From: Planctomycetota bacterium | Lineage (GTDB): Bacteria; Planctomycetota; Phycisphaerae; Phycisphaerales; SM1A02 | Assembly (NCBI GenBank): GCA_024226535.1 | Contig: JAAELP010000193.1 | Coordinates: 2,706 to 66,705, forward strand | Length of the DNA: 64,000 bases | Direction of reading: 5' to 3' | Part shown: positions 4,401 through 22,171 of the stretch, piece by piece | How the letters are laid out: each line of letters opens with the position of its first letter | How positions within the stretch are numbered: position 1 is the stretch's first letter | Translations under genes and position numbers: made by a program | The notes under the pieces: generated by a model | Databases searched by the model: none | Seen by the model: only the letters and a program-made list of their open reading frames with translations | What the model was told of the DNA's origin: nothing

Positions 4401-5057
4401 GCCGTCGTCGTCGGTGTCGGCGAGGGGGCTGAGCGCGCTCATGGGCACGACCTCGCGTGGGAGCCCCGGCGCCTCCCACTCCAGCCGGGCCTCGGCCCCA
4501 CCGCCGGCTTCGAAGTAGTCCATCTGGAACAGGTATCGCTCGCCGCCGACGAGAGCGATCGCGCCCGACCATTCGGTCGGCGACTGATCGTGCCACTCGT
4601 CGATGAGCAACGCCTCGTCGATCCAGAGCCGCACCCCGTCGTCGGTGGTGGTGTAGAAGGTGTACGTGCCCGAGACGGGCGCCGTGATCGCGCCGGTCCA
4701 GCGCACCGTGAACTCGTCGTCCGGCAGGGCGGCGTCCGGCGATCCGTTGCCCCAGTTGAAATCGATGACGTCGTCGAACCGCACGAGCACACGTTCGCTG
4801 AAGCTGCCCGCGCCGGACTCGCTCACGTAGTACTGGCCGGTCAGACCGCCCGGGGCCAGCGCCTCGCAGGCGTCGAGGATGCCGCTGTCGTCGCAGTCGG
4901 CGCAGGGCTGGCACTCGTCGGGCACCGCGTCGCCATCGCAGTCCATCGACGTGCCGGTGGCGATGTCGATGGCATCGTCGATGCCGTTGCCGTTGCAGTC
5001 GATGATGCCGGTGCCCGTCACGATCGCGAGGACGAGGACAGGCAACACGGTCAGCAC
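1425..5057 (-). CDS. giant secreted modular protein: PA14 + LamG/ConA-like + about 20 Cys-bracketed Ca-type repeats + two copies of an unassigned ~170-aa domain + C-terminal double dockerin-like module
   Basis: In-frame part of track ORF 1425..5222. PA14-like segment GLTGQYY..FTVRWTG..YTFYTTTDDGVRLWID..YFEAGGGAEARLEW (~4467-4847). LamG-like segment YWRFED..FTIEAWVRLD..LDWHAVSVTYD..GAIDELRI (~3585-4265). Tail GDIDGSGDVGFGDILAVIGAWGPCPGCPEDLNGNGAVDFADILVIIGAWGACP. Start placed at GTG 5057 (VLTVLPVLVLAIVTG hydrophobic leader) because the 55 upstream codons are Arg-rich and overlap the paralog's 3' end. The start is uncertain. Confidence 0.85.
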   Translation of the reverse strand: MLTVLPVLVLAIVTGTGIIDCNGNGIDDAIDIATGTSMDCDGDAVPDECQPCADCDDSGILDACEALAPGGLTGQYYVSESGAGSFSERVLVRFDDVIDFNWGNGSPDAALPDDEFTVRWTGAITAPVSGTYTFYTTTDDGVRLWIDEALLIDEWHDQSPTEWSGAIALVGGERYLFQMDYFEAGGGAEARLEWEAPGLPREVVPMSALSPLADTDDDGYPDVCGEDCNGNGIPDVGDILAGTSTDCDGNCVPDECDIVPPVPVGYWRFEDLGGVIVDSGPNGLDGIAAAVAPTTDVPVDPVPQTGEPNTFAIEFTDGLIEVTDPGGLLTLAGESFTIEAWVRLDQLSDTSGTGQRQYLLQKKVIASSGDVSDYSVLVQSGNLSSGLDQNFGKTSGFTGRELLVTFGTGTQTWGVTSNLEISDLDWHAVSVTYDADTGEVRFGRDGMFETIAVVPPGFFANTGPLIVGAHTNAAGNVNQHLKGAIDELRITAGALRVLRLLRSPVMADCNGNGEPDECDVATGFSEDCDANGIPDECDPDCNENGTPDGCDIAGGTSPDCQGDGIPDECQLVDNDCDGDGVPDACQLADEDCNGNGVVDSCDVAAATSDDCQPDGIPDECQVGEDVVLSYDDGGAEFGVRTNGGPFMAWLNMFAVEPGVSIIDAIDVMFVFMPLGTTVDVHVWSDPNGDGDPTDAQALWSGQYVVQELDVFLTIDVTDLDLGPANTRFFVGFMMPVTANDFPAAMDTQGSNFGQSWIVGDGSPIDPNDLASAAEFGTIDDILFPGHWLIRARMLGTQGDCNLNGIPDLCDIDAGTSEDVDGNGVPDECEDCNGNGTPDGLDIAGGTSLDCQGDGVPDECQLVNNDCNGDLAPDDCQLETLGDCNGNGVPDGCDIASGTSADTDGSGIPDECEDCNNNGILDGLDILLGTSDDCQPDGIPDECQLGDPELSQTYLWDDGTKDQNIGFVSPVVMGWLNHFTVQPGSEWISAIEIAWGNTVTNQPATLYVWSDPNGDGDIPDAQVLASVDTVTQNVNTNIFNVEPIVPTFVGPAGTSFFVGVIFDDMFNTAPAAVDTSEPDGEMFLFDGFGFIDPNDLTSGGAVTPIQNPGWDAMVRAAGFDGTFPLDCNDNGVPDDCDIDEGILTDVNGNGIADECECVGDIDGSGDVGFGDILAVIGAWGPCPGCPEDLNGNGAVDFADILVIIGAWGACP

Positions 5058-7843
5058 GCTCCCCAACTGGCGATGATGATGAGAATGTCCGCGAAGTCCA
5101 CCGACCCGTTGTCGTTGAGATCCTCCGGACACGAGCCGCACGGCCCCCAGGCGCCGATGACGGCGAGGATGTCGCCGAAGCCGACGTCGCCGCTGCCGTC
5201 GAGGTCGGCCGGGCACTCGCACTCGTCGGGAATGCCGTTGACGTTCGCGTCGTGCTCGAGCACGCCGTCGGAACCGACCGCATGCACCAGGAAGTCGCTA
5301 TTGCCCCAGTTCAGGCTGACCCCCGCCCCGAGGTCATTCAGATCGAGCGAGCCGGAGGTGTCGTAGAAGATCCATCCCAGCCCGTCCGTCGGCTCGTCGC
5401 GATCCAGCGCAATGAAGCAAGCGCTGCCGTAGATGTCGTCGAAGTGCACGCCGACGAAGAACGCTGTTCCCACCGGCCCGACATAGGTCGGCGGAATCGG
5501 CACCACGTTGAGATTATCGAGGGGAGAGTCGATCTTCATCGTTCGCGTGTCGACCGTGATGATGACCTGGGCATCGGTGGGATCCCCGTCCCCGTTGGGG
5601 TCGGTCCACAGGACGACTTCGGCCGGCAGATCCGGAAAGGTGTCGCCCCACACGACCTCGATGGCGGAGATCCACTCGCCGCCCGCCTGGACGGTGAATG
5701 GGTTCATCCACGCAAACTCGAGGTCTGTTCCTCCGATGAAACAGAGATTCCCTTCCTGGACGCCGTCGTCGAGCGCGTAGGTCATGGACGTGACCGGCTC
5801 GCCGAGCTGACATTCATCCGGAACACCGTCGCCGTCGCAGTCGTCGCTCGAGCCCAGGAGGAGGTCCAGCGAGTCGACCAGGCCGTTGCCGTTGCAATCC
5901 TCGCATTCGTCCGGCACGCCCGAGCCGTCCGTGTCCACGTCGTAACCGGATGCGATGTCGCACGCGTCGAGGATCCCGTTGTCGTTGCAGTCATTGCCCT
6001 CGAGCTGGCAGTCATCGGGGACGCCGTCACCATCGCAGTCGTTGGCCGTCACCTGGCACTCGTCGGGGACGCCGTCGGCCTGGCAATCCGCGCTCGTCCC
6101 GCCGGCGATGTCGAAACCGTCGACGATGCCGTTGTCGTTGCAGTCCTCGCATTCGTCCGGGACGCCGTTGCCGTCGAGATCCTCGCTGGTCCCGACCTCG
6201 ATGTCGCAGTCATCAGGATTGCCGTTGCCGTTGCAGTCGGTTCCGTCACCACGCATCTGGGCGCGGATTATGAAGACGTTGCCGAACAACAGGTTGTTGA
6301 CCGTGCCGAACTCAACCGCCCCGGCGGAGAGATCGTTCGGGTCGATGGGAGCGTTGGACCCGACGCCCCAACTCCGGTCGGGCACGGGGACCCCCTCGAT
6401 GTCCAGCGCGGCGGGGAAGTCCTGGTCCGTCATCGACACCGTAAAGCCGACGAAGAAGCTCGCGCCGGTATCACCCACCTCGACGTCGGGAACGGCGATC
6501 TGGCTCAGTGAGCTGGTCTGCTGCACGGTCGCCGAATCCGACCACAGAACCTGGGCGTCGGTCGGATCACCGTCTCCGTTCGGGTCGGTCCACACGTACA
6601 CGCCGACCTGCGTCCCCAGGGACATGATGCCGAACTCCACCTCGATCCCCTCCACGGTTCCGGCCCCGTCGACGACGTTGAAGCGGTTGAGCCACGCCAT
6701 GTACGTCTCGTCCGCACGCCAGGCGATCCGCGCAAAGCCGCTGTCGTGGAAGAGACCGATCGCCTCGTCGAGCTGGCACTCGTCGGGGATGCCGTCCGGC
6801 TGACAGTCGTCGGACGTTGCGCCCGCGATGTCACATGCGTCGGCGATCCCGTTGCCGTTGCAGTCGGGGTCGCACTGGTCCGGGATCCCGTTGCCATCGC
6901 AATCGTTCCCCACGAGTTCGCACTCATCGGGCGCACCGTTGCCGTCGCAGTCGGCGCTCGTACCGTCGGCGACGTCGCACCCATCCGGCACGCCGTTGCC
7001 GTTGCAATCTGCCATCTCGTAGCTTGCCAGCAGCTGCCCGTCCGGCATGAAGTCGTCCACGATCCGAAGCTCGTCGATCGCCCCCTTCAGGTGCTGGTTG
7101 ACGCTGCCGGAGACGTTCGTGTGCGCGCCGATGATCAGCGGGCCCACGTTCGCGAAGAACCCCGGCGGGGATACCGGGATCGTCTCGAACATGCCGTCGC
7201 GACCGAAACGCACCTCCCCAGCCACGGCGTCGTAGGCCACGCTGACGGCGTGCCAGTCGAGATCCGAGATCTGGAGGTTCGACGTGACCCCCCACGTCTG
7301 CGTGCCCGTGCCGAAGGTGACGAGCAGCTCGCGCCCGGTGAACCCGGATGTCTTGCCGAAGTTCTCGTCGAGTCCCGACGAGAGGTTGCCCGACTGCACG
7401 AGCACCGAGTAGTCCGAGACGTCGCCGCTGGACGCGATCACCTTCTTCTGGAGCAGGTACTGGCGCTGCCCGGCGCCGCTCGTGTCCGAGAGCTGGTCGA
7501 GCCGGACCCACGCCTCGATGGTGAAGCTCTCGCCGGCGAACGTGAGCAGCCCCCCGGGATCCGCGACCTCGATGAGCCCGTCCGTGAAGTCGACGGCGAA
7601 CGCGTTGGGCTCGCTGGTCTTCGGGACGGGATCGACGGGGACGTCGGTGATCGGGGCGATGCTCACCGCCAGTCCGTCGAGGCCGTTGGGGCCGGAGTCG
7701 ACGATGACGCCGCCGAGGTCCTCGAATCGCCAGTAGGCGAGCGGCTCGATGACCGCGAGGTCGATGGCGTCGTCGATGCCGTTGCCGTTGCAGTCCGCGG
7801 GAACAGCCATCGCGAGAGCGAGCAGCGTGTACGGGAGGATCAT
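5051..7843 (-). CDS. giant secreted paralog: LamG/ConA-like + Cys-bracketed Ca-type repeats + two copies of the unassigned domain + double dockerin-like tail (no PA14)
   Basis: Track ORF, 930 aa. Short leader MILPYTLLALAMAVPA. LamG segment (~7058-7738) is nearly identical to that of 1425..5057. Tail DLDGSGDVGFGDILAVIGAWGPCGSCPEDLNDNGSVDFADILIIIASWGAC. Confidence 0.85.
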   Translation of the reverse strand: MILPYTLLALAMAVPADCNGNGIDDAIDLAVIEPLAYWRFEDLGGVIVDSGPNGLDGLAVSIAPITDVPVDPVPKTSEPNAFAVDFTDGLIEVADPGGLLTFAGESFTIEAWVRLDQLSDTSGAGQRQYLLQKKVIASSGDVSDYSVLVQSGNLSSGLDENFGKTSGFTGRELLVTFGTGTQTWGVTSNLQISDLDWHAVSVAYDAVAGEVRFGRDGMFETIPVSPPGFFANVGPLIIGAHTNVSGSVNQHLKGAIDELRIVDDFMPDGQLLASYEMADCNGNGVPDGCDVADGTSADCDGNGAPDECELVGNDCDGNGIPDQCDPDCNGNGIADACDIAGATSDDCQPDGIPDECQLDEAIGLFHDSGFARIAWRADETYMAWLNRFNVVDGAGTVEGIEVEFGIMSLGTQVGVYVWTDPNGDGDPTDAQVLWSDSATVQQTSSLSQIAVPDVEVGDTGASFFVGFTVSMTDQDFPAALDIEGVPVPDRSWGVGSNAPIDPNDLSAGAVEFGTVNNLLFGNVFIIRAQMRGDGTDCNGNGNPDDCDIEVGTSEDLDGNGVPDECEDCNDNGIVDGFDIAGGTSADCQADGVPDECQVTANDCDGDGVPDDCQLEGNDCNDNGILDACDIASGYDVDTDGSGVPDECEDCNGNGLVDSLDLLLGSSDDCDGDGVPDECQLGEPVTSMTYALDDGVQEGNLCFIGGTDLEFAWMNPFTVQAGGEWISAIEVVWGDTFPDLPAEVVLWTDPNGDGDPTDAQVIITVDTRTMKIDSPLDNLNVVPIPPTYVGPVGTAFFVGVHFDDIYGSACFIALDRDEPTDGLGWIFYDTSGSLDLNDLGAGVSLNWGNSDFLVHAVGSDGVLEHDANVNGIPDECECPADLDGSGDVGFGDILAVIGAWGPCGSCPEDLNDNGSVDFADILIIIASWGAC

Positions 7844-7928: not shown

Positions 7929-8324
7929 CTACGACGGGCACGGGCCCCACGCGCCGATCACGACCAGGATGTCGGCGAAGTCCACCTGGCCGTTGTTGTT
8001 GAGATCCTCGGGGCATCCGGCACACGGTCCCCACGCGCCGATGATCACGAGGATGTCGGCGAAATCGACGTCACCGTTGCCGTTCAGGTCCGGCGGGCAG
8101 GTGGCCGAGGTGCCGATGCCGGCGTGGACGGGTCTGAACCGGTAGTCGTCGTTGACGGGGAGCTGGGTGTCGGCGGAGCGGGCCGAGTGAAGGTCGCCCG
8201 TCTGGGCGTCCTTGGCGATACCAAAGCCCGCCGGCGCGAGTACGAGTGTGAGCACCGTCAGGAGCGTGGCCACCGCCGCACCCAGACCGACGAACTGCTT
8301 CTCACGGATCGACTTGGGGTCCAT
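7929..8324 (-). CDS. small membrane-anchored/secreted protein consisting essentially of a double dockerin-like module
   Basis: Track ORF, 131 aa. Hydrophobic N-terminal span GLGAAVATLLTVLTLVLAPAG, then DLNGNGDVDFADILVIIGAWGPCAGCPEDLNNNGQVDFADILVVIGAWGPCPS. Confidence 0.7.
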   Translation of the reverse strand: MDPKSIREKQFVGLGAAVATLLTVLTLVLAPAGFGIAKDAQTGDLHSARSADTQLPVNDDYRFRPVHAGIGTSATCPPDLNGNGDVDFADILVIIGAWGPCAGCPEDLNNNGQVDFADILVVIGAWGPCPS

Positions 8325-9412: not shown

Positions 9413-9907
9413 TCAGGGGCACGGCCCCCATGCCGCGATGACCACGAGGATGTCCGCGAAGTCGACGGCGCCGTTGCCGTTGAGATCCTCGGGGCATCCT
9501 CCGCACGGTCCCCACGCCCCGATGTGCTGCCGCTGGCCGGCGCCGCTCGTGTCGCTCACGTGATCGAGCCTGACCCACGCCTCGATCGTGAAGCTCGCGT
9601 CGCCGAAGCTCAGAAGACCCGTCGGATCGACGACGTTGAAGCGGCCGCCCGACGCGGTGCTCTGCCAGTTCAGGTCGAGCGACTGCGTGTTCAGCGCGCC
9701 GGTGCCGGGCACGGGATCGACCGGGATCTCCGCGATCCGGAACGGCAGCGCGTTGAGCGTGCCGTCGAGACCGTTGGGCCCGCTGTCGACGACCGTCGTC
9801 CCGCCCGCGCCCTCGAAGCGCCAGTACGCCGTCTCGACGGCGTTCGCCGCGGTGGTGAGACCGCCGAGAACGATCGCGCCCGTCCCGATGACTGTCCAGA
9901 TACGCAT
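9413..9907 (-). CDS. mini family member: signal peptide + N-terminal half of the LamG domain fused directly to one dockerin-like repeat
   Basis: Track ORF, 164 aa. AYWRFEGAGG..FTIEAWVRLDHVSDTSGAGQRQ is followed immediately by HIGAWGPCGGCPEDLNGNGAVDFADILVVIAAWGPCP. Confidence 0.7.
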   Translation of the reverse strand: MRIWTVIGTGAIVLGGLTTAANAVETAYWRFEGAGGTTVVDSGPNGLDGTLNALPFRIAEIPVDPVPGTGALNTQSLDLNWQSTASGGRFNVVDPTGLLSFGDASFTIEAWVRLDHVSDTSGAGQRQHIGAWGPCGGCPEDLNGNGAVDFADILVVIAAWGPCP

Positions 9908-9935: not shown

Positions 9936-10145
9936 TCAGCAGTCTCCCCACAACGACAGCAGCACGCCGATGTCGCTGATCCCGACGACGCCGTCGCCGT
10001 CGAGCTCCACCTGGATCACGTCGCCCCCAACGGCGACGTCGACGGCTCCCTGGACGGACGGAAAGTGATCCGGCACGATGATGGTCCCGGCCGTCGCGAC
10101 GTCGCAGACCGCGAGCAAGGCGAGTGATGAGATCATCCGTCTCAC
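9936..10145 (-). CDS. small secreted protein with a single degenerate dockerin-like C-terminus
   Basis: Track ORF, 69 aa. Leader MRRMISSLALLAVCDVATA; ends DGDGVVGISDIGVLLSLWGDC. Its GTG start overlaps the upstream GT2 stop by 4 nt (10142-10145), suggesting coupled translation. Confidence 0.5.
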   Translation of the reverse strand: MRRMISSLALLAVCDVATAGTIIVPDHFPSVQGAVDVAVGGDVIQVELDGDGVVGISDIGVLLSLWGDC

Positions 10146-11149
10146 GATTCACCTCCTGACACCTGGTGGGGCTCCTCCGCGCGCTTCCGAAGCAGGTACG
10201 CGAGCACGCCGTGCGTCATGCCGACGCCGCGCCAGACGGCGCGCACGGCGCTCATGCCGGCGAAGAGCACATGGCTCAGGCGCCCCGTGCGGCGCACGAT
10301 GGCGGTCGTCATGGGGATCTGCGTGACGAGCAGCAGGCCGAGGAGCACCACCGGCGTCCACCGCGCATACGGCACCACCGCCAGCGGCAGCGACGCGAGC
10401 AGGGCCATCGCGAGCATCGGCTGCACGTGATCGAGGGCGTTGCTGTACGAGTTGTGCCCCGCCCGACCCGGGTGCTCCAGGTGCAGCCAGACGCGCCAGT
10501 AGCCCTGTTGCCGCTGGGTCCTCAGGTACGAGCCGAGCCGCTGCTCGTGATAATGATCGACCCGGGAGCGCGCCTCGAAACGAAGACGGCCGCCGGCATC
10601 GCGGGCCCGGAACGACAACTCGGCGTCCTGGGCCTTCAGGTAGCGCTCGTCGAAGCCGTCGAGGTCCGCGAGCACCGAGCGCCGGTACAGCACGTTGAAC
10701 GTCGCGAGGAAGTCAACCTCCTCGCCCATGGCCAGGTGCCGCTGGACGATCTCCTCGTGGATGAGGCACGGGAGCAGGCTGTCCGCGTTCGCGTTGCCGT
10801 ACGTCCCGCTCACGGCGGCCACGTCCGGCGCCTCCAGGTGCCCGACGAGGTGCTCCAGGGCGTCGGGCGCCGCGACGCAGTCGGAGTCGACGAACCAGAC
10901 GAGGTCCCCGCGCGCCGCCCGCCAGCCGAGGTTCCGGGCGGAGCCCGCGCCGGACCCGGTTCCCGCGAGCACCGTCACCGGATGACGGCCCGCGATCGCC
11001 GCCGTGTCGTCGGTGGAGCCGTCGTCGACGAAGATGATCTCCTCCAGGGGCGATCCCGGCCGCGCGCCGATCGCGACGATCGCCGCGAGGCACGCCTCGA
11101 TCGTCGCGGCGCAGTTCCGTCCCGGGATGACGGCGCTCACCGTGCTCAT
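10142..11149 (-). CDS. family 2 glycosyltransferase with C-terminal membrane helices
   Basis: VIPGRNCAATIEACLAAI..IIFVDDGSTDDT..SARNLGW..WFVDSDC, followed by hydrophobic C-terminal spans. ATGA overlap with the upstream gene at 11146-11149. Confidence 0.85.
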   Translation of the reverse strand: MSTVSAVIPGRNCAATIEACLAAIVAIGARPGSPLEEIIFVDDGSTDDTAAIAGRHPVTVLAGTGSGAGSARNLGWRAARGDLVWFVDSDCVAAPDALEHLVGHLEAPDVAAVSGTYGNANADSLLPCLIHEEIVQRHLAMGEEVDFLATFNVLYRRSVLADLDGFDERYLKAQDAELSFRARDAGGRLRFEARSRVDHYHEQRLGSYLRTQRQQGYWRVWLHLEHPGRAGHNSYSNALDHVQPMLAMALLASLPLAVVPYARWTPVVLLGLLLVTQIPMTTAIVRRTGRLSHVLFAGMSAVRAVWRGVGMTHGVLAYLLRKRAEEPHQVSGGES

Positions 11150-13014
11150 TCCCGGACCTCCCTTCGGGCTTCCGACTCCTCGAGCCAGCGGCGTGCGCCG
11201 TCGTGCCCCGGGTCCGCGTCGAGCGCGCCGCGGTACGCGGCGGCGGCGGCGTCCATCCGGCCGAGCCGGAAGTGCGTGTTGCCGACGTTGTAGAGCGCCG
11301 ACGCGAGCAGGGCCTCGTCACGCGCGGCGCGGGCGAGCCGCGCGCCCTCCTCGAACGCCGGGATCGCCTCGTCGAAACGCTCCGCCTCCGTGAGGGCGTT
11401 GCCCAGCGCCAGGTAGGCCCCGGCGCTCGGCGCACGCTCGATAGCGCGCCGGTACGTCTCCACCGCGTCCTCCGGGCGCCCCGCCCGCCGGAGCGTGTCC
11501 GCCAGTTGGAGCAGCGCATCGGGACGCCGCAACTGCGGGGCGGCGACCTCCAGGTAGCGAAGCGCCTCGCCGAACCGGCCGGCCTCCGCGAGCGCGGATC
11601 CGTAGTTGAGCTCCGCGAGCGCGTCCCCCGGGCGCTCGGCCACGACCGCGCCGAGCACGTCGATCGCCTCGTCGATTCGCCCCGCCTCGTGCAGGGCGAC
11701 GCCGAGATTGACACGAGGCCGGCGGTGATGCGGCACCTGCTCGGCCGTCTTCGTCCAGAGCGCCAGCGGCGTGCGATAGTCGTGGTTGCGCACGATCGAG
11801 CGGGCCCCGAGGGCCGTCGTGGCCGCGACGAGGACCACCGCCCCGACGACCGCCGCCCGCGAGGGCCCGACCAGCCGCGGGGCCAACCACGTGAAGCCGG
11901 CGACCGCGAGCACCGCGAGCGCCGCCAGCGGCAGGTACATCCGGTGCTCGGCCGCGAGATCACGGATGGGCACGAAGCTCGAGGTCGGCGCGAGCCAGAT
12001 GAAGAACGCGGCTCCCGCGAAGGCGATCGGCCGACGGCGCCACGCGCCGACCACGGTCACCACGGCGGCGGCGGTGAGCAGCGCGCCGGGGATCACGACT
12101 TCGCGCGCCGTCGTCGCCGCCGGCCAGCCGGGGTCGATGCACAGCGAGCGGGGCCACGCCGCCAGCGCGACGTAGTGCACGATCACCCCCGCCTGCGTGA
12201 CGAAGTACTCCAGCGGCGTGACCTGCGCCACCCCGAAGCCCGCCGAGGGCGTTCCCGCGTCACCGGGCGCCCCGAAGATCGCCGCGAGCGTTCCGGTCGG
12301 AACCAGCACGAGCCACGTGCACGCGAGCGCCGCGTGGAGCGCGCCGCGCCGCCGCAGCGCCGCGCGCCACGACGACGAGACGACGATCCCGTCGAAGACC
12401 AGGGCGAGCACCGGCGCCACGACCATCGTCGGCTTGGCCCCCATGCCCAGCGCGCACGCGACGATCGCGACGGCCCACCACCGGGCCCCGCGCTCCGCGC
12501 GACCGGCGCGCAGCACCGCGTACAGCACGACGAACATGGCCAGCGCGGCCAGCACCTCCGACCGCTGGATCACGTAGGTCACCGACTCCGTCTGGAGCGG
12601 GTGCACGACCCACAGCAGCGCGGCGGCGAAGCCGATCGTGGTCGCGCCGCGCCGGCGGGCGACCACCCGGCGGACGAGGCCGAACAGCACGCAGGCGGCC
12701 GCGACGTGCAGGAGCACGTTCACCGCGTGGTAGCCGCGCGGGTCCAATCCCCCGAGTGCGTGGTTCGCCACGAGCGTCGCGGTCGTCACCGGGCGCCGAT
12801 CGCCGCGGAACAACTTTCGCAGGTCGCCCGACAGCTCGCCGGAGCGCTCGACGATCTGCGGCACGTCGTCGAAGACGAATGCCGCCGGAATCGCGTTGGC
12901 GTACACCGCCAGGCCGGCGACGACGATCACGACGTGCAGGATGAGGATCGATCGCCAGTCCCCGCGCCGGGGATCGCGGCCATCCCCCGGCATTGCCGGA
13001 GGCGCCTCGGTCAT
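11146..13014 (-). CDS. TMTC-like GT-C fold glycosyltransferase: multi-pass membrane domain + C-terminal TPR repeats
   Basis: YANAIPAAFVFDDVPQIV..RPVTTATLVANHALGGLDPRGYHAVNVLLH matches the FVFDD / RP..L / GYH..N..LH signature of TMTC (DUF1736) proteins. At least 9 hydrophobic spans. TPR-like C-terminus (NLGVALHEAGRIDEAIDVL.., YLALGNALTEAERFDEAIPAF.., LYNVGNTHFRLGRMDAAAAAYRGAL). Start moved to ATG 13014, which forms an ATGA overlap with the stop of 13011..14273. Track ORF extends to 13128. Confidence 0.8.
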   Translation of the reverse strand: MTEAPPAMPGDGRDPRRGDWRSILILHVVIVVAGLAVYANAIPAAFVFDDVPQIVERSGELSGDLRKLFRGDRRPVTTATLVANHALGGLDPRGYHAVNVLLHVAAACVLFGLVRRVVARRRGATTIGFAAALLWVVHPLQTESVTYVIQRSEVLAALAMFVVLYAVLRAGRAERGARWWAVAIVACALGMGAKPTMVVAPVLALVFDGIVVSSSWRAALRRRGALHAALACTWLVLVPTGTLAAIFGAPGDAGTPSAGFGVAQVTPLEYFVTQAGVIVHYVALAAWPRSLCIDPGWPAATTAREVVIPGALLTAAAVVTVVGAWRRRPIAFAGAAFFIWLAPTSSFVPIRDLAAEHRMYLPLAALAVLAVAGFTWLAPRLVGPSRAAVVGAVVLVAATTALGARSIVRNHDYRTPLALWTKTAEQVPHHRRPRVNLGVALHEAGRIDEAIDVLGAVVAERPGDALAELNYGSALAEAGRFGEALRYLEVAAPQLRRPDALLQLADTLRRAGRPEDAVETYRRAIERAPSAGAYLALGNALTEAERFDEAIPAFEEGARLARAARDEALLASALYNVGNTHFRLGRMDAAAAAYRGALDADPGHDGARRWLEESEARREVRE

Positions 13015-14273
13015 GACGGGGCCTCGGGGAGCGGGTACTCGTACGTGATCGTCGACGGCACGTACGGGAAGTCCATCCGCAGCCGGTACACGTCCATCCG
13101 ATCGGCGTCCCAGCCCAGCGACCCGCACACGTGGCGGACCATCTTCTCGTAGCGCGGCACGTCGCGCGTGCGCAGCACGCTCGGGCCCGACCCGAGGTAC
13201 TCGACCTGCTCGTGGATCGGCAGCCGATCGCGGTCCGACCGCAGCGTCGTGTACAGCGGGCGCCCGGCGAGCTCACCGTAGAGACGCGCCTGGGGCGCGA
13301 CGCGACCGTAGAGGTCCGCGGGCACCAGGTGGTCGAAGACCACGGTTCGACACGGCGTTCGTAGCTCGAGGTTCTGCGCGAGGATCCGGTTCGATTCGGC
13401 GCGATACCTCGGCATGACGGAACGCACGACCTCGCCGGTGAAGCACGTCACGGCGCCCTCGTTCCCCAGCGGCCCCGAGCCGACCTCGTCCTCCACGGTG
13501 CCGTCCTCAAGGATGCGCCTCTGCACTTCGGTCCGCGAGGTCGAGGAGAAATCGTGGAGGAGCGGGGCGCAGCCCGCCTTCGTGTCGTCGATCGCCTCGC
13601 GCTCGACGGGAATGGGCCGGCCGAGGTCGTCGGTCGGCCGCCAGCGCTCGATGACCCAGGAGCGGTCCGGGCGCAGGCGTCGCAAGCCCACGGACCCGAA
13701 GATCACGGCGGCGTCGAGCATGACGCCGTCCTGATTGGGGTTCACGATCACGGCGCGCATCATCGCGCGGGCCTGCACGCCCCAGATGAAGCTCGTCGCC
13801 TGGAAGCCGTCACGGCGATACAGGAGTTCGACGTCCCGGCCGTTCTCGGCCGCGAGCCCGGCGAGGATCATCTCGAACGTCTCCCGGTCACCGGCGTGCC
13901 GGGCGACGATCTCGTCGAGATTCGCCAGGGCCGTTCGGACCGCGGCCAGCCGCTCGGTCGAGACCCCGTGCCGCTTCGCGGCGGACAGGATCTTCTCGAC
14001 GGCGCCGGCACCCGGGATGCGCTGGAAGATCACGACCGGGTCGGTGCTCTCCATGATCTTGGCGAGCTTCCACGCGAGCGTCTTGTGGAGGCCGAGCGAC
14101 TTGGCGATCTCGTACGGCCGCTCGGTGGGCTCGGGCACGGTGCCGACCGCGTCCACGAACGCGTCCTGCACCCGCAGGAGGGCGTTGTGCGCCAAGGCCC
14201 CGACGCCCGCGTCGGCCGGGGTCGCGGGTCGGGATGGAATCGTCGAAGCCACGTCCCTCAACCCTATCCACAA
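13011..14273 (-). CDS. hypothetical protein, family not recognised (possible N-terminal HTH-like segment)
   Basis: Track ORF, 420 aa, with balanced, protein-like composition and no low complexity. ERPYEIAKSLGLHKTLAWKLAKIM looks helix-turn-helix-like. TTG start at 14273; alternative GTG at 14252. Confidence 0.65.
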   Translation of the reverse strand: MWIGLRDVASTIPSRPATPADAGVGALAHNALLRVQDAFVDAVGTVPEPTERPYEIAKSLGLHKTLAWKLAKIMESTDPVVIFQRIPGAGAVEKILSAAKRHGVSTERLAAVRTALANLDEIVARHAGDRETFEMILAGLAAENGRDVELLYRRDGFQATSFIWGVQARAMMRAVIVNPNQDGVMLDAAVIFGSVGLRRLRPDRSWVIERWRPTDDLGRPIPVEREAIDDTKAGCAPLLHDFSSTSRTEVQRRILEDGTVEDEVGSGPLGNEGAVTCFTGEVVRSVMPRYRAESNRILAQNLELRTPCRTVVFDHLVPADLYGRVAPQARLYGELAGRPLYTTLRSDRDRLPIHEQVEYLGSGPSVLRTRDVPRYEKMVRHVCGSLGWDADRMDVYRLRMDFPYVPSTITYEYPLPEAPS

Positions 14274-14354: not shown

Positions 14355-15596
14355 TCACAGCCCGGGGAGGGCACCGGAACCCCCCGCCAGGCCCTCGTAG
14401 CGGGCCACCAGGACGTCGGCCAGCCTCTCCGTGTCGAACCGCTCGAGCGCCGCCGCCCGGCCCGCCGATCCGAGCCGGCCGGCGAGGTCGGCATCCTCGA
14501 GCCGGGCGATCCGCTCGGCCATCGCCTCGACGTCGTGCTCGTCGACCAGCCAGCCGGTGACGCCCTCGTCGACCTGGTGGGGAATGCCCGCGTGCCGGGT
14601 GGCCACGACCGGAAGCCCCGACGCCATCGCCTCCAGGATCACGGTGGGCGTGCCCTCCTCGTCGCCGTCCGACGCGCGGACGCTCGGGGCGATCAGCGCG
14701 TGCGCGCCGGCCATGAGCGCCGGCACGTCCTCGTGCCCGACGGCGCCGGCGAAGTGCACGGCATCGGCGATCCCCAGTTCGTCGGCGAGAGCGCGGAGTT
14801 CGCGGTCGAGCGGACCGTCGCCCGCGATGTGATAGGCGACGGGCAGCCCGCGGGCGCGGGCGAGGGCCACCGCGCGCAGCCCGTCGGCGAAGCCCTTCTT
14901 CTCGACGAGACGCCCCACCGACAGCAGTCTCAACGGTGGGCGCGGCGGCGCGTGCCCGGTGGGCGTGAAGCGCCGGCAGTCGACGGCGAGCGGGTGGACG
15001 TCGAGCTGCTCCGGCTTCGCCCCGAGCGCCTCGAGGCGGTCGCGCATCACCGGGTCGAGCGCCAGCACGAGCGCCGCGCGGTCGAACAGCCTGCGGTAGA
15101 CGTCGCCGCCGCGCTCCTGCGGGTACCGCGTCACGTCGTGCCCGTAGAACGTGGCCACGAGCGGTCCGCGCAGCACGCCCAACTCGTGCAGCATCGCCCC
15201 CGTGACCCCCGCCGGTCCGAAGTGACAGTGCACCGCGTCGAAGCGAGGTCGATCGAGCAGCGGCACCGCGGCGTGGAGAGCGGCGAAGGACAGCGCGTAC
15301 CGGCCGAACCGCAGCGGGTTCAGGGCCCGGCCGACGATCCGCGGGTGACACCAGGCGTGCCGAGCGGCGAGGGCCAGGCCGCTCAGGGTGCGGGGGAGCC
15401 GCGCCGTGGCGAGCGGCGGCTGCGGGCGCCAGTGCGACGCGAGACGCTCGCGGGCGGCGTCATCGACGGCCCCGGCCGGCGTCGGCGGGGCGAAGATGGC
15501 CAGCTCGTGCCCGCGCTCGAGCAGCCCCTCAAGCTGGCCGAGGACGTACGGCTGGTGGCGGCGGGGGAAGTCAGGGACGAGAATCGCGATCTTCAT
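14355..15596 (-). CDS. GT-B fold glycosyltransferase (GT4 family, WcaL-like)
   Basis: MKIAILVPDFPRRHQPYVLGQLEGLLERGHE at the N-terminus. C-terminal EEGTPTVILEAMASGLPVVATRHAGIPHQVDEGVTGWLVDE (E-x7-E region). Start moved to ATG 15596; track ORF begins at 15641. Confidence 0.85.
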   Translation of the reverse strand: MKIAILVPDFPRRHQPYVLGQLEGLLERGHELAIFAPPTPAGAVDDAARERLASHWRPQPPLATARLPRTLSGLALAARHAWCHPRIVGRALNPLRFGRYALSFAALHAAVPLLDRPRFDAVHCHFGPAGVTGAMLHELGVLRGPLVATFYGHDVTRYPQERGGDVYRRLFDRAALVLALDPVMRDRLEALGAKPEQLDVHPLAVDCRRFTPTGHAPPRPPLRLLSVGRLVEKKGFADGLRAVALARARGLPVAYHIAGDGPLDRELRALADELGIADAVHFAGAVGHEDVPALMAGAHALIAPSVRASDGDEEGTPTVILEAMASGLPVVATRHAGIPHQVDEGVTGWLVDEHDVEAMAERIARLEDADLAGRLGSAGRAAALERFDTERLADVLVARYEGLAGGSGALPGL

Positions 15597-15655
15597 CGGC
15601 CACGCCGCCCCGTCGATGACACCCGGAAGACACCACGCCACGCAGTGCCGGCCCC

Positions 15656-16468
15656 ATGACCCCCCCCATGACCCCCCCGATCATCATCACCGGAATGCAC
15701 CGCTCGGGCACATCGCTGCTGGCGAGCATGTTCTACCACGCGGGGCTCCATCTCGGTGACCGGCTGCTGCGCCCGGCTCGCGCCAATCCGCGAGGCTACT
15801 TCGAGGACGTGGAGTTCATCGCGTTCCACGACGACGTGCTGCGGCGTCTGGGAACGACGTTCTACCTGGAGCCCGAGCCGAACGGCCCGGTGCCGGCGCC
15901 CTGCCGCGAGCGCGCCGAGGAGATGATCGCCGCGCGGGACGACCGCCCGGCGTGGGGATGGAAGGACCCGCGCACCACGCTGTTCCTGGACTTCTGGCGC
16001 GAGCTGGTCCCGGACGCTCGTTTCGTCTTCGCGTACCGGAGCCCCGCGGAGGTCATCGATTCGCTTCGGCGCCGCGGAGACGCCGAGCTCCAGCGCCGAT
16101 ACCCGGGCGCGCCGTTCCTCGAGCGTTTCGGCGTCCCGCGGTACCGCACGCGTCGCGCGCTGGAGCTCTGGTGCTCGTACAACGAGCGCATCGTCTCGTT
16201 CGTCGAGCGGGATCGCGCGCGATGCCGCCTCGTGCGCTTCGACGCCCTCGCCGAGGTCGTCGGCCCCCTCGTCGACGAGCTCTGCGACGACGGAGTGCCC
16301 CTGCGCCGCGATGCCGACGTCGCGTCCGTCGTCGATCCGAAGCTGGGCGCCGTCGCGCCGCCGCCGGCACTGGCGCGGACCTGCGCCCGCGACCGCCGCG
16401 CGGCGGATCTCATGCGGCGGCTCGACGCCCTCATGGCGTCGACCGCGCCGGGGGGAGGCTCGGCATGA
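15656..16468 (+). CDS. sulfotransferase (Sulfotransfer_3-like)
   Basis: PAPS loop IIITGMHRSGTSLLASMF. Later FVFAYRSPAEVIDSL is a 3'-PB-like motif. Duplicated ATG-A-polyC start (see findings). Confidence 0.8.
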   Translation: MTPPMTPPIIITGMHRSGTSLLASMFYHAGLHLGDRLLRPARANPRGYFEDVEFIAFHDDVLRRLGTTFYLEPEPNGPVPAPCRERAEEMIAARDDRPAWGWKDPRTTLFLDFWRELVPDARFVFAYRSPAEVIDSLRRRGDAELQRRYPGAPFLERFGVPRYRTRRALELWCSYNERIVSFVERDRARCRLVRFDALAEVVGPLVDELCDDGVPLRRDADVASVVDPKLGAVAPPPALARTCARDRRAADLMRRLDALMASTAPGGGSA

Positions 16469-16473
16469 GCCGC

Positions 16474-18024
16474 TCATGGATCGCCGGCATCGGACTCGCC
16501 GCGCGTCGGCGCGGCCCCGGCCCGCCGGGGAACGAGGTGCCGCGCCGTGACGACCATGGCGGCGATCCTCCGGCGCCCGCCCGGCACGACGAGCCAGCCC
16601 AGCGCGTACCCCGCGGCGAACGTCGCCAGCAGCACCACGAGCGCGAACGCGTGCGGGCCGTCGGGACCGAGCCGAACGGCCACGGGCACGCTCACCGCCG
16701 CCGCCACGGACGACGCCACCGCGATGCGCCACGTCGCGGTGACGATGTCGCTCACCTGCACGAACGTGCCGCGCAGGCAGTAGAGGATCGCGGGAATGCG
16801 GAGCGTGCACGCGGTGATGCTCAGCGCCGCCGCCACGCCCACCGCGCCCCAGCGCAGACCGATGAGGTACGCGGCCACCACGCAGAACGCCCGGAACAGG
16901 TGCCAGCGGAACTGCCGGTCCGACCGGCCCAGCGGCACGTACACCCAGCTCGTGGCCACGTTGACGGACGCGAGCAGGGCCGCCGGGGCGAGCGCCTTGA
17001 AGATCGGGATCGCCGCGTCCCACTGGTCGCCGAGCAGCGTGGGCACGAGATGATCGGCCGCGATGAGACCGGCGAGCACGGCGGGGAACGACACCGCCGC
17101 GATCGCCTCGAGCCCGCGCCGGTAGAACAGGCGGTAGCGGTCCGGGTCGTCCTGCAATCGGCTCAGCGTGGGGATGGCGACGTGGGTCAGCGGGAAGTTG
17201 AGCTGCGCGATCGGCATGAGCAGGATCCGGTGCGCGTGGGCGTAGTACCCGGTCGCGGTCGCGCCCAGCACGCGTCCGATCAGGATCCGGTCGAGGTTCC
17301 GCGCGATCGTGCCGATCAGGTTGGTGCCGGTGAGGTAGGCGCCGAAGCGCACCATGGGCGCGAGCCCCTCCGACCGGCGCGGACGTCCCGGCCGCCAGTC
17401 GCAGGCGAGCCAGTACCCCGCCGCCCGCAACAGGGCCATGGCCAGCGTGAGCACGACGAGTGCCCAGTAGCCGGCGCCGAGCGAGGCGGCGACGATGGCG
17501 GCGGCGATGCCCCCGGCCGTCGCCGCCACGGTGATCGCGGACAGCGCCGTGAAGCGCATCCGGCGGCGCAGCAAGGCATGATGCTGCGTGGACAGTCCGG
17601 TGACCACGAAGGCCGCCGACAAGACGGCGGTGACCGCCGCGAGTTGTGGCTCACCGTAGAACCAGGCGACCGGGTAGGCGATCGCCACGCCGACGGCGGC
17701 CGCGGCGACGCCGACGGTGGCGTTGATCCAGAACAGCGCATTGACCTGGTCGTCGGTGACGTCCGTCTGCTGAACGGTCGCCTGCGGCAGGCCCAGCTCG
17801 GCGAAGTTCGCGATGAAGGCGACGAACCCCGCGGTCATGGCGATGAGCCCGAAGTCGTCGGGTGTCAGCAGGCGGCCGAGCACCGCCGCGGACACCACCC
17901 CCAGCAGCACGGTGACTCCCTGCGCCACCAGCACCGCGGCGCCGCTGCGCACGGAACGCCCCGGGAGATCCAGGTGCAGGTCGTCCGTGCGCAGCGCGCT
18001 CGGCGTCTCCCGCTCGCGCGTCAT
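16474..18024 (-). CDS. polysaccharide flippase, Wzx/PST family (MOP superfamily)
   Basis: About 12-14 hydrophobic spans. N-terminal GAAVLVAQGVTVLLGVVSAAVLGRLLTPDDFGLIAM is typical of Wzx-type transporters. Start at ATG 18024 (MTRERE); alternative at 18054. Confidence 0.8.
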   Translation of the reverse strand: MTRERETPSALRTDDLHLDLPGRSVRSGAAVLVAQGVTVLLGVVSAAVLGRLLTPDDFGLIAMTAGFVAFIANFAELGLPQATVQQTDVTDDQVNALFWINATVGVAAAAVGVAIAYPVAWFYGEPQLAAVTAVLSAAFVVTGLSTQHHALLRRRMRFTALSAITVAATAGGIAAAIVAASLGAGYWALVVLTLAMALLRAAGYWLACDWRPGRPRRSEGLAPMVRFGAYLTGTNLIGTIARNLDRILIGRVLGATATGYYAHAHRILLMPIAQLNFPLTHVAIPTLSRLQDDPDRYRLFYRRGLEAIAAVSFPAVLAGLIAADHLVPTLLGDQWDAAIPIFKALAPAALLASVNVATSWVYVPLGRSDRQFRWHLFRAFCVVAAYLIGLRWGAVGVAAALSITACTLRIPAILYCLRGTFVQVSDIVTATWRIAVASSVAAAVSVPVAVRLGPDGPHAFALVVLLATFAAGYALGWLVVPGGRRRIAAMVVTARHLVPRRAGAAPTRGESDAGDP

Positions 18025-18131
18025 CGCGAGCGTCTCCGGCGGGCCGGGGCACATGGGCGGGTTTCCAGGCGGGGGGAGGTCACGCGGCGGTCATGGTACC
18101 GGGCGCGACCATTTACCATGAGCGAGCGGAC

Positions 18132-19046
18132 ATGACCGATGCCCCGAGACAAGTCGAGTCCGACGGAGATCGCGTGGAGCGTCTCGCCTCGAAGCCGATC
18201 CTGATCGTCGGCGCCCCGCGGAGCGGCACGACCTGGGTCCAGCGCCTGCTCCTCGGCGACCCGCGCTGCTGCGGGAGCCAGGAGTCCCACTTCTTCGTCA
18301 CCTTCGGGCGCGTCCTGGGGGACTTCGACGACAAGGCCGGGCGCGCGCGCCCGCACGGCCTCGCCTGCTACTGGAAGCGGGCCGATCTCGTGGCGGAGCT
18401 GCGGCGGCTCTGGGGCCGCTCGGTGGGGACGCTGATCGAGCGGAGCCCCGCCGCCGAGATCCTCGTGGAGAAGACGCCCGACCACGCGTGCTGGCTGGAC
18501 GTCATCGACGAGATCCTCCCGTCCGCGCGGATCGTGCACGTGGTGCGCGACAGCCGCGCCGTGTGCGCCTCGCTCCTGCACGCGAGCCGGCAGCCTTGGG
18601 GCGGGCCGTGGGCGCCGTCCACGGCGGGCGCCGCCGCGGCGAAGTGGCGCGAGCACGTGGAGGCCGCCGAGCGCTCGGGGGCGCGGCTGGGGAGCGAGCG
18701 CTTCATGCGCCTGCACCAGGAGGACCTGCACGAGGATCCCCCGCGCGAGATGGGCCGGCTCTGGCGTTTCGCCGGCCTCGAGGTCGAGCCCGCCCGGCTC
18801 TCGGCCATCGCCGACGCCGCCGCGAAGCCCGGCGGCCCCGCGTTCGAGATGACCGGTGAGCTCGAGGGGGCCGCCGGGCCCGAGCCGGACGGCTTCGCGC
18901 GCGGCGGCGCGCCGAACCGCTGGCGGCGCGAGCTCGGCCCGTGGCAGCGCTGGGTCATCTGGCGCGAGACCGCCGCCGCCATGCGCCGCCTCGGCTACGA
19001 CCGGAGCGGCCGCGCGCGCGGCGGCGTGACGGAGACGACGGAGTGA
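18132..19046 (+). CDS. sulfotransferase (Sulfotransfer_3 / tyrosylprotein-sulfotransferase-like class)
   Basis: ILIVGAPRSGTTWVQRLLL (5'-PSB) and IVHVVRDSRAVCASLL (3'-PB). Start at ATG 18132 inside track ORF 18093..19046. Confidence 0.8.
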   Translation: MTDAPRQVESDGDRVERLASKPILIVGAPRSGTTWVQRLLLGDPRCCGSQESHFFVTFGRVLGDFDDKAGRARPHGLACYWKRADLVAELRRLWGRSVGTLIERSPAAEILVEKTPDHACWLDVIDEILPSARIVHVVRDSRAVCASLLHASRQPWGGPWAPSTAGAAAAKWREHVEAAERSGARLGSERFMRLHQEDLHEDPPREMGRLWRFAGLEVEPARLSAIADAAAKPGGPAFEMTGELEGAAGPEPDGFARGGAPNRWRRELGPWQRWVIWRETAAAMRRLGYDRSGRARGGVTETTE

Positions 19047-19936
19047 GCGCCGTGCCACGAGTCTCCGTCATCATGATCGTCCTCGACGGCGAGCGCTTCC
19101 TGCCCGAGGCGCTCGACAGCGTCGTCGCCCAGACGATGCCGGACTGGGAGCTGGTCATCGTCGACGACGGATCGACGGACCGGACCCCCGAGATCGCCGG
19201 GGCGCTCGCGGCCCGGGAGCCCGAGCGCGTGCGCGTGGTGACGCACCCCGACCGCACCAACCGCGGCATGAGCGCGTCGCGCAACCTCGGCGTGCGCGAG
19301 AGCCGCGGTGCCTACGTCACGTTCCTCGATCACGACGACGTCATGATGCCGGAGAAGCTGCGCGAGCAGGCGGCGCTGCTCGACGACCACCCCAACGCCG
19401 CCGCCGTCTTTGGCCCCAACCTGCTCTGGCGATCGTGGGATCCCGGCGCCGGCGACGAGCCGGACGAGATCCAGACGCTGGACCTGCCCACCGACCGCGT
19501 CGCACCGCCTCCGGGCCCGCTGCCGTCGTACCTGGCGAGCAGCGCGGCCACGCCGCTCGGCTTCATGATCCGGCGCACCGCGTTCGACGACGTCGGCGGA
19601 TACGAGGAGACGTTCCGCGGCATGTACGAGGACCAGGTCTTCCAGGCCAAGCTCTACCTCGACCATCCCGTGTACGTCTCGAGCCGGGTGTGGATCCGGT
19701 ACCGGCGGCACCCGGACTCGTGCGTCATCCGGACGTTCCGGGAAGGCGGTCAGCTCCTCGCCCGCCGTCGCTTCCTGCACTGGCTGCGCGACCATGTCGC
19801 GAGCCGGCCCGTCGCCGATGCCGAACTGCGACGGCTGATCCGGGAGGAGCTGCGACGGACGGGCCGCGCCCGCGCGACCTGGCTCGTGCGGCAGGCGCGC
19901 AACCGGATCGCGAGGTTCCTCGGTCGCGGTTCGTGA
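19043..19936 (+). CDS. family 2 glycosyltransferase
   Basis: VSVIMIVLDGERFLPEALDSVVAQT..LVIVDDGSTDRT..SASRNLG..TFLDHDD. GTG start at 19043 overlaps the upstream stop (GTGA). Confidence 0.85.
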   Translation: MSAVPRVSVIMIVLDGERFLPEALDSVVAQTMPDWELVIVDDGSTDRTPEIAGALAAREPERVRVVTHPDRTNRGMSASRNLGVRESRGAYVTFLDHDDVMMPEKLREQAALLDDHPNAAAVFGPNLLWRSWDPGAGDEPDEIQTLDLPTDRVAPPPGPLPSYLASSAATPLGFMIRRTAFDDVGGYEETFRGMYEDQVFQAKLYLDHPVYVSSRVWIRYRRHPDSCVIRTFREGGQLLARRRFLHWLRDHVASRPVADAELRRLIREELRRTGRARATWLVRQARNRIARFLGRGS

Positions 19937-19943
19937 GCGCGGG

Positions 19944-20882
19944 TCACGTACGCCCGGCGAGGGCGTCGTCGAGCGTTCGTTGCGGCGACCAGCCGAGCGT
20001 CTCACGGATGCGCCGGTTCGAGTAGCGCCACGGCCGGCAGCGCGCCGCCAGCTCGCGGCGGGCGAGAAGGCCGGTCGCGCCGAGGAGACGGAGCAGGGTC
20101 CAGGGGACCGGCACGAGGAACGGCGCCGGATCGCGTTGGCGGCGGATTCGCCGCGCGTATTCGAGTTGCGTGGGTGTCTCGTCGTCGACGATGTTGAGCG
20201 CGACGCCGCGCACGTCGTCGCGCTCCGCCGCGATGACGATGGCGTCGGCGCAGTTCTCGACGTACGTCAGGGGCAGCGGCGCCCGCGTGCCCATGAGGAC
20301 CCACAGGCGCGACGAGAGCGCGCGGCCCAGCCGCCACGTCCACAGCCGCTCCGGGCCGTACACGACGCCGGGCCTGAGGATCAGCCAGTCGATCCCGGCC
20401 GCCGCCGCCCGATCGACCATGAGCTGCTCCTGCTCGAGCTTCGCGTGGCAGTAGGCGCCTCGCTGCTCGGGGTGGGGCTCCAGGGGCGAGGTCTCGTCGA
20501 TGATCCCGTCGCCCCGCGGCCTCGCGTAGTCGTAGACCGCGATCGAGCTGACGCCGACGAGGCGGCGCGCGCCCGCGGCCTCCATCGCGTCGAGGAGGTG
20601 CCCGGTGCCGGTGACGGTGGACGCGAACTGCTCGTCGCGGCTGCCAGCCATCGCCGCCGCGAGGTGCACGACGACGTCGACGTCGGCGAGGTGACCGTCG
20701 AGACCGTCACGATCGCGCAGGTCGTGGCGGACGATCTCGATGCCGGCGTCGTTCGACCGGTCGAGCGCCGCGGTATCCGCCGTGGGGCGCACGAGCGCGC
20801 GCACGCGATGCCCGCGTCGCAGCGCCGCCGCGGCGGTCGAGCGGCCGATGAACCCACGGGCTCCGGTGACGAGCATGCGCAC
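19944..20882 (-). CDS. NAD-dependent sugar epimerase/dehydratase (extended SDR)
   Basis: MRMLVTGARGFIGRS Rossmann motif and catalytic YCHAK (YxxxK). Confidence 0.85.
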   Translation of the reverse strand: MRMLVTGARGFIGRSTAAAALRRGHRVRALVRPTADTAALDRSNDAGIEIVRHDLRDRDGLDGHLADVDVVVHLAAAMAGSRDEQFASTVTGTGHLLDAMEAAGARRLVGVSSIAVYDYARPRGDGIIDETSPLEPHPEQRGAYCHAKLEQEQLMVDRAAAAGIDWLILRPGVVYGPERLWTWRLGRALSSRLWVLMGTRAPLPLTYVENCADAIVIAAERDDVRGVALNIVDDETPTQLEYARRIRRQRDPAPFLVPVPWTLLRLLGATGLLARRELAARCRPWRYSNRRIRETLGWSPQRTLDDALAGRT

Positions 20883-20974
20883 GCGGCGTCTCCTCGTCGC
20901 GCAGGATACGGTACGATTCGTCCGCGCGTGGCGATCGGCGCCCGACGGCGTACGCGGGACCGCGAGGACCGGGC

Positions 20975-22168: not shown

Positions 22169-22171
22169 TCG

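Follow-up and report, generated by a model that had tools for sequence, protein, structure and literature searches.

A planctomycete homologue of the animal TMTC glycosyltransferases, translationally coupled to a membrane GT2 gene within a glycan cluster

Animal TMTC1-4 (CAZy family GT105; Pfam TMTC_DUF1736 plus tetratricopeptide repeats, TPRs) are protein O-mannosyltransferases of the endoplasmic reticulum that act on cadherins and protocadherins. An 11-transmembrane-helix (TM) topology has been modelled for them, and their enzymatic activity had not been directly demonstrated according to a 2021 analysis (PMC7801869), in which Eisenhaber and colleagues also noted full-length homologues, with both transferase and TPR parts, in many poorly characterised prokaryotes (PMC7801869, Discussion). 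A bacterial GT-C enzyme of similar build is TfpW, the pilin O-arabinofuranosyltransferase of Pseudomonas aeruginosa, which is experimentally required for pilin O-glycosylation and whose first loop and C-terminal domain were confirmed to be periplasmic by reporter fusions (bioRxiv 10.1101/2020.04.19.049825). The streptococcal GtrB/PgtC2 and Pgf (PgfS, PgfM1/M2) systems pair a cytoplasm-facing GT-A/GT2 enzyme with a GT-C enzyme that glycosylates extracytoplasmic proteins, and the Streptococcus mutans pgf genes cluster with those of the adhesin substrates Cnm, CnaB and CbpA (PMC12041528). The gene described here lies on the minus strand of a 64,000-nt stretch of Planctomycetota bacterium DNA (contig JAAELP010000193.1), the whole of which is called the window below; all coordinates are window positions. 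Judged from the sequence, its product is a GT-C_A glycosyltransferase of the inner membrane and a true homologue, in a bacterium, of animal TMTC1-4. The gene and its parts are as follows:

11146..13014, minus strand: TMTC-like GT-C glycosyltransferase with a C-terminal TPR domain, 622 amino acids (aa) (translation, PMT_2, BLASTP with a TMTC3 fragment)
11779..13014, minus strand: membrane domain, residues 1-412, 11 TM helices, N-terminus cytoplasmic, GT-C_A fold
12865..12879, minus strand: FVFDD, residues 46-50, with the acidic pair of the first periplasmic loop, putatively catalytic (conservation, alignment with TMTC M1)
11179..11727, minus strand: periplasmic TPR region, residues ~430-612, ~5 repeats (Pfam TPR_2 1.9e-21, TPR_1 2.1e-20, TPR_16 and others)

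The G+C content of the window is ~70%, and many of its open reading frames (ORFs) are therefore spurious. Among the ORFs that span most of the region, the minus-strand frame 11146-13272 is the sole one to pass the codon-position filter (G+C at third codon positions, GC3, 0.88), and the plus-strand ORF across the 11146-13014 DNA has an Arg/Asp/Glu/His-rich translation that is not protein-like. The gene begins at the ATG at 13014, which is the start given in an earlier note on this DNA, and ends with the TGA at 11146-11148. Its translation is letter for letter the same as the protein on record (P0003), and the ORF is thus a genuine gene.

How specific is the relationship to the animal proteins? 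The earlier note had claimed that three motifs of the membrane domain stand in the same order and spacing as in the TMTC family, and this agrees with the published alignment of 24 animal TMTCs that, together with its ArnT, STT3, PglB and Pmt1 rows, served as our reference (PMC7801869, Additional file 1). Two of the motifs are exact, Y38-x-N40-x5-F46VFDD50 (Y38-A-N-AIPAA-FVFDD50) and G-Y-H-x-x-N-x-x-L-H (G94-Y-H-A-V-N-V-L-L-H103); of the third, R-P-x(3)-L, R74-P75 is present and Ala stands where Leu was expected (RPVTTATL), the family consensus having Leu. The stretch RP...HxxNxxxH runs for 30 residues without a gap, 12 of them identical to human TMTC3, and HPLQTESVTYVIQRSE of the GT-C protein aligns gaplessly to HPIHTEAVTGVVGRAE of TMTC. 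Both also have Y-x-N-x5-FVFDD-V-x-x-I, and there are further matches of PRSLCIDPGW in the GT-C protein to PSELCCDW in TMTC and of PTS...AEHRMYLP to PAS...AERVLYMP, so that the patterns FVFDD, RP...YHxxNxxxH, HPxxTExVxxxxxRxE, PxxLCxD..W and PxS...ExxxYxP are found in both; the four non-TMTC rows of the alignment lack the TMTC-shared strings. In terms of the numbered TMTC motifs (PMC7801869, Table 4), M1 (DD), M3 (RxD/E in HPxxTExV...) and M7 (ExxxYxP, with its Arg displaced by one position) are common to the GT-C protein and the TMTCs, as is the HxxNxxxH of TM2. M2 keeps RP alone and lacks SHKSY, M4 keeps its Lys and not its Glu, and M5 keeps Asp and Trp with an insertion; the core PxxLCxD..W of the DUF1736 loop is kept with a 2-residue insertion.

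When a 78-aa zebrafish TMTC3 fragment (EL1 to EL2) was used as a BLASTP query against the 20,904 genome ORFs of at least 120 aa, the GT-C protein ranked first (41% identity over 83 columns, E 8.8e-10), followed by two of its paralogues (2.6e-8 and 7.8e-6); all other matches had E>1, and the other PMT_2 proteins of the genome were missed. The A1 family profile matches the same fragment with E 8.5e-12; significant similarity to the animal membrane domain was limited to the N-terminal half. A language-model feature search, which is a lead only, lists a eukaryotic TMTC_DUF1736 cluster with a score of 0.90. A regular expression built from the motifs matches one of the 20,904 ORFs, and because it was written after both sequences had been seen it restates the alignment and is no independent test. 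The first rank in the fragment search and the shared motifs bear out the specific homology to animal TMTCs that had been proposed.

Membership in the GT-C glycosyltransferases, claimed in the same note, is upheld by a match to PMT_2 (PF13231) above its cut-off (40.3 bits, cut-off 26.1, E 1.1e-9, residues ~84-239, in a six-frame genome search), by the GT-C_A fold, of which the protein has the conserved N-terminal 7-TM module and the long first extracytoplasmic loop, and by the acidic residues of that loop. PF13231 also appears in the precomputed domain list of the identical recorded protein and matches 13 of 40 homologues (best E 4e-11). An hmmscan of the isolated N-terminal membrane domain against Pfam at E<=10 returned no family, so the PMT_2 match is filter-dependent, and for membrane proteins of high GC that are rich in Ala, Leu and Val a negative hmmscan is not sufficient by itself. 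Sequence searches of the PDB copies gave no solved chain for the TMTC-type membrane domain; by structure, the matches are other GT-C families. The structure model and the hydropathy profile both give 11 TM helices. Arg is frequent in three short loops (121-122, 217-223 and 327), which are therefore cytoplasmic (positive-inside), and FVFDD and the TPR domain thus lie in the periplasm. The C-terminal TPR assignment of the earlier note stands, as TPR_2 and a dozen related models match the region.

Across 40 homologues at 40-81% identity, 27 positions are invariant; they include D49, R74, H96, N99, H103, the HPLxT..V.Y..QR block, K194, E356 and R358, and all of these lie in loops lining the GT-C active site of TMTC models. 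D50 is kept in at least 90% of the homologues (D49 and D50 are positions D30 and D31 of the A1 profile). The acidic pair of FVFDD aligns with the DD of TMTC motif M1, which corresponds to D55/E56 of ArnT (PMC7801869).

The locus can now be compared with the described systems. Like the animal TMTCs, the protein joins a GT-C domain of 11 TM helices to extracytoplasmic TPRs at its C-terminus, and like them it has several paralogues per genome: there are four GT-C-TPR proteins in this one, the other three standing alone amid housekeeping genes. It differs from them in three missing elements, SHKSY in M2, the NDFWG insert and DNP at the start of the DUF1736 loop, and in lying in a bacterial inner membrane, so that the carrier lipid would be a bacterial polyprenol and not dolichol. 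TfpW (646 aa) resembles it in its 11 predicted TM helices, cytoplasmic N-terminus, DDx motif in a periplasmic loop and C-terminal periplasmic TPR domain (bioRxiv 10.1101/2020.04.19.049825), a likeness drawn from the described architecture; tfpW differs in lying directly downstream of pilA and using decaprenyl-phosphate arabinofuranose, and no pilin family was found in Pfam scans of the GT-C gene neighbours, the direct ones being an orphan protein and a GT2. Since TfpW is experimentally shown to be a pilin O-glycosyltransferase of the same architecture (bioRxiv 10.1101/2020.04.19.049825), the earlier statement that the function of bacterial TMTC-like proteins is unknown needs qualifying. The streptococcal GT-Cs, in contrast, are of YfhO type without a TPR domain, their GT2 is of GtrB type, and they modify disordered regions rich in Ser/Thr, of which the neighbours of the GT-C gene have none. 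The ArnC/ArnT system differs in that ArnT has neither a TPR domain nor the TMTC-specific motifs, the GT2 here is synthase-like and not ArnC-like, and no GtrA-like flippase was found in the genome.

The GT-C gene is the second of four translationally coupled genes, whose successive junctions overlap as ATGA (orphan/GT-C), ATGA (GT-C/GT2) and GTGA (GT2/69-aa protein). The genes around it are as follows:

13011..14273, minus strand: orphan 420-aa soluble protein, operon head, its stop overlapping the GT-C start (junction sequence)
10142..11149, minus strand: 335-aa GT2 anchored in the membrane, minimal fold like that of hyaluronan/cellulose synthases, its start overlapping the GT-C stop
9936..10145, minus strand: secreted protein of 69 aa, dockerin-like tail with WGDC at its end, the GTG start codon overlapping the GT2 stop (translation, junction, AGGAGG upstream)
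9413..9907, minus strand: 164-aa secreted protein with a signal peptide, a LamG-like N-terminus and a GC-type dockerin-like tail (translation, dockerin-loop regular expression)

The 164-aa gene starts 29 nt after the 69-aa gene, behind a good Shine-Dalgarno sequence. The nearest context of the GT-C gene is thus the coupled membrane GT2 and the orphan protein, inside a glycan cluster, and not the Ca-repeat proteins among which the earlier note had placed it. The orphan protein has no Pfam, NCBIfam or PDB-sequence match, and its nearest Atlas clusters are unnamed and mostly from Planctomycetota. Six further paralogues of it (26-38% identity) are present in the genome, on contigs C99, C135, C107, C520, C250 and C473.

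In the GT2, a GT-A domain is combined with interface helices, which bear an invariant Q-R-x-x-G-x-W-R, and with two TM helices at the C-terminus. Profile searches liken it to MftF or EpsD, in both cases below the model cut-offs, and it scores E 3e-6 against ArnC and 5.5e-4 against PpgS; ArnC, GtrB and DPMS are absent from the top 50 rows of its fold ranking. Its active site must face the cytoplasm, so by topology a lipid-linked intermediate would be the only route from it to a periplasm-facing GT-C enzyme. Over the top 120 clusters the GT2 has 57-81% identity, versus 37-81% and mostly 41-47% for the GT-C protein, and its higher conservation fits a conserved upstream enzyme that would feed diversifying, acceptor-specific transferases.

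How well is this linkage conserved? Three orthologous loci (L001-L003, 55-64% identity) retain the orphan, GT-C and GT2 trio, with the orphan gene in front of the GT-C gene, and also keep sulfotransferase, GT4 and Wzx genes and those of PA14/LamG and 129-aa dockerin proteins. Among relatives of ~45% identity, the GT-C gene stands alone in L004-L006, and in L007 and L008 three tandem GT-C-TPR paralogues surround the same GT2 without polysaccharide genes. In a sample of 61 genomes of the class, the GT2 was found in 5 and the GT-C family in 16, and all five GT2 genomes carry the GT-C family. The two genes are adjacent in G000, in G056 (the same GT2 with three tandem GT-C-TPR paralogues), in G023 (with the sole GT-C-TPR copy) and in G032 (a decayed copy), and lie within ~8-16 kb of each other in G048. 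The G032 copy (G032:C27:6736-9815) has an in-frame TGA in its GT2, and the adjacent GT-C matches in two pieces; this module may be decaying, or there may be an assembly error.

A second kind of glycosyltransferase gene pair was observed near the trio elsewhere. A short GT2 (231-236 aa) and a DUF2304 membrane protein are encoded divergently adjacent to the trio in L002 (2540-3696) and L003 (1764-2905) and on a separate contig in this genome (C430:8684-9607). We take this pair to resemble the mycobacterial PpgS/Rv3632 polyprenyl-phosphate sugar synthase pair, and it might be an alternative source of donor.

On either side of the operon lie the other genes of the cluster and further secreted proteins:

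14355..26604: rest of the glycan cluster, namely a GT4, a Wzx flippase, four of the five cluster sulfotransferases, four GT2s, an epimerase and a GFO oxidoreductase (Pfam scans)
7929..8324, minus strand: 131-aa protein with two dockerin-type Ca loops (Pfam Dockerin_1 5e-06; NCBIfam dockerin_GC 19.6 bits, below cut-off)
5051..7843, minus strand: 930-aa secreted LamG protein with a dockerin-like tail (Laminin_G_3 1.6e-09; 32 Cys; C-terminal dockerin loops)
1425..5222, minus strand: giant PA14 + LamG secreted protein with a dockerin-like tail (PA14 6.1e-26, Laminin_G_3 1.3e-10)

The cluster occupies 8488-26604. Of its five sulfotransferase genes of the 3'-phosphoadenosine-5'-phosphosulfate (PAPS) type, one is placed downstream, among genes for secreted proteins. 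It ends near 26.6 kb, where a CitMHS/ArsB-type anion transporter gene (26570-28009) abuts, and no Wzy, Wza/Wzc or initiating phosphoglycosyltransferase was found among the genes scanned. The earlier note had described Ca-repeat, lectin-domain neighbours, and the Pfam matches and loop patterns confirm PA14/LamG proteins with dockerin-type Ca loops. The true start of the giant protein is probably downstream of 5222; a 62% identical orthologue lies beside the module in L002, and so does a 52% identical homologue of the 131-aa protein. Five secreted proteins (69, 164, 131, 930 and ~1200 aa; 1425-10145, minus strand) have a common C-terminal dockerin-like tail ending W-G-x-C(-P), which in four of the five takes the form CPEDLNGNGxVDFADIL..WGxC. 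Homologous tails occur on contigs C118, C7 and C64, and a literature search found nothing on a 'GC-type dockerin'.

What, then, might this enzyme do? It is very probably an active GT-C enzyme working in the periplasm with a lipid-linked donor. The analogy of other GT-C enzymes suggests that the sugar would come from a donor linked to polyprenyl phosphate, on the outer side of the inner membrane, and would be passed to an acceptor that the TPR domain would help to select. Topology and conserved linkage suggest that the coupled downstream GT2, its active site facing the cytoplasm, would build the lipid-linked sugar. The acceptor would most likely be one or more secreted proteins, as the TPR domain, the characterised enzymes of the same architecture and the operon content suggest, and the first candidates would be the dockerin-tailed LamG/PA14 proteins of the operon and cluster. 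Secreted proteins are favoured because characterised enzymes with GT-C and TPR parts modify proteins, because the module exists without a polysaccharide cluster and because the operon encodes small secreted proteins; we hold this choice of acceptor tentatively, at slightly less than an even chance. The streptococcal pairs of GT-A and GT-C enzymes, which glycosylate proteins, also speak for it, as do the PA14/LamG and dockerin orthologues kept beside the module in L001-L003. The whole explanation, a TMTC homologue with a donor made by the GT2 and a secreted-protein acceptor, is about evenly poised between right and wrong. The analysis gave no support for mannose as the sugar, and the analogy with cadherins would come solely from the presence of Ca-binding modules. 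A narrower form, in which the hyaluronan synthase-like GT2 and the TMTC-like enzyme are a dedicated module that O-glycosylates folded Ca-binding domains of the GC-dockerin-tailed LamG/PA14 proteins of the same operon, is doubtful; if true, it would be a bacterial counterpart of the domain-specific O-mannosylation of cadherins, with donor synthase, transferase and substrates in one locus.

Several results weigh against this explanation. The position of the gene inside a polysaccharide-type cluster (Wzx, GT4, GT2s and five sulfotransferases) fits a glycan acceptor equally well, the candidate protein acceptors beside it have no Ser/Thr-rich tracts, and the link from the neighbouring secreted proteins to the enzyme, which the earlier note had drawn, found no evidence beyond conserved synteny. 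In its fold ranking the GT2 is closest to hyaluronan and cellulose synthases, and its identification as a polyprenyl-phosphate sugar synthase of the DPM1/GtrB/ArnC type was not borne out by either profile or fold ranking. A GtrA-type flippase (PF04138) has no match at E<=0.01 in this 95%-complete genome and is above cut-off in 8 of 14 control genomes. Eleven of the 16 class genomes with the GT-C family lack a GT2 of the coupled type, so that the family does not generally require this GT2. As for the homology, Pfam TMTC_DUF1736 (PF08409; the TM7-TM8 loop) has no match on the GT-C protein at E<=10 (it matches 2 of the 40 homologues, with E 0.049, and a paralogue on contig C25 with 21.3 bits, below the cut-off of 27), a TMTC3 fragment covering the DUF1736 loop has no significant match in the genome, and the metal-binding Glu of motif M4 (KE[T/Q]xxT) is Pro in the GT-C protein and is not conserved in the family. 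Because of the missing DUF1736 match, the absent SHKSY and this Pro, we regard the protein as a homologue with TMTC architecture and not as a strict PF08409 member. Finally, a literature search found no tested function for any member of the bacterial TMTC-like family itself.

Since the closest context is the coupled GT2 inside a glycan cluster, a glycan acceptor is a serious rival, which we consider somewhat unlikely. Here the GT-C enzyme would add a side-branch sugar in the periplasm to the cluster's sulfated poly- or oligosaccharide, with the GT2 providing the lipid-linked donor as in the three-component Gtr, CsbB-YfhO and ArnC-ArnT systems, and the TPR domain would be a periplasmic scaffold for glycan machinery. 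TPR proteins act as scaffolds in synthase-dependent systems, where BcsC, PgaA, AlgK and PelB are examples. The embedding of the gene among a Wzx, a GT4, five GT2s, five sulfotransferases, an epimerase and an oxidoreductase, kept in L001-L003, argues for such a system, as does the synthase-like fold of the GT2, and known systems for extracytoplasmic glycan decoration are built around pairs of GT2 and GT-C enzymes (PMC11127046). However, the module of GT2 and GT-C-TPR occurs without a polysaccharide cluster in L007, L008, G056 and G023, the three paralogues in this genome are free-standing, and the expected GtrA flippase was not found. Furthermore, the glycan-modifying GT-Cs ArnT, YfhO, GtrC and Emb/Aft have no TPR domain, whereas the protein-modifying TMTC and TfpW do.

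Two other roles would fit the same gene less well. The protein could be an en bloc transferase, similar to an oligosaccharyltransferase or ligase, that moves the sulfated lipid-linked oligosaccharide, built by the cluster and flipped by Wzx, onto secreted proteins or another acceptor, which appears improbable. It could also be an inactive, GT-C-derived membrane anchor that merely presents the TPR domain in the periplasm; the unconserved M4 glutamate and the lack of a DUF1736 match are consistent with this, but the 27 invariant positions, D49 among them, and their location in active-site loops make it very improbable indeed.

The family, its architecture and its homology to TMTCs have already been described in print and annotated in databases, so the discovery is modest and the locus is a convenient test bed and not a surprise. 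An exhaustive profile search with the family gave 17,782 clusters (50% identity) at E<=1e-30 and 92,367 at E<=1e-3, and a word-index search gave more than 5,000 relatives, some of them named 'protein O-mannosyl-transferase' by the Joint Genome Institute (JGI). In the ESM Atlas its structural neighbours are clusters with TPRs from Verrucomicrobiota, Acidobacteriota, Planctomycetota, Nitrospirota, Omnitrophota and others. With bacterial relatives in the tens of thousands, the family is experimentally almost untouched. Here one coupled operon encodes the transferase, a tightly linked GT2 as possible donor synthase and, as candidate acceptors, small secreted proteins of 69-164 aa, and the locus is thus a practical start for reconstitution in Escherichia coli and for structural work on the TMTC class.

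A further TPR-bearing membrane protein was observed at the edge of the window. It is an 815-aa polytopic protein of the same cluster, on the minus strand at 1-1335, whose gene extends beyond the window (C193:1593-4040; L012:1593-4040), and it matches DUF6541 over residues 12-615 (40 bits, cut-off 29) and has TPRs at 650-783. An hhalign comparison with the TMTC-like family profile gave a probability of 0.3, so that the two are unrelated at the sequence level. Its TPR part is 44% identical to that of the GT-C protein, and its L002 orthologue directly follows the GT2 of the trio with overlapping stop and start codons. A possible role for it is that of polymerase or ligase in the cluster.

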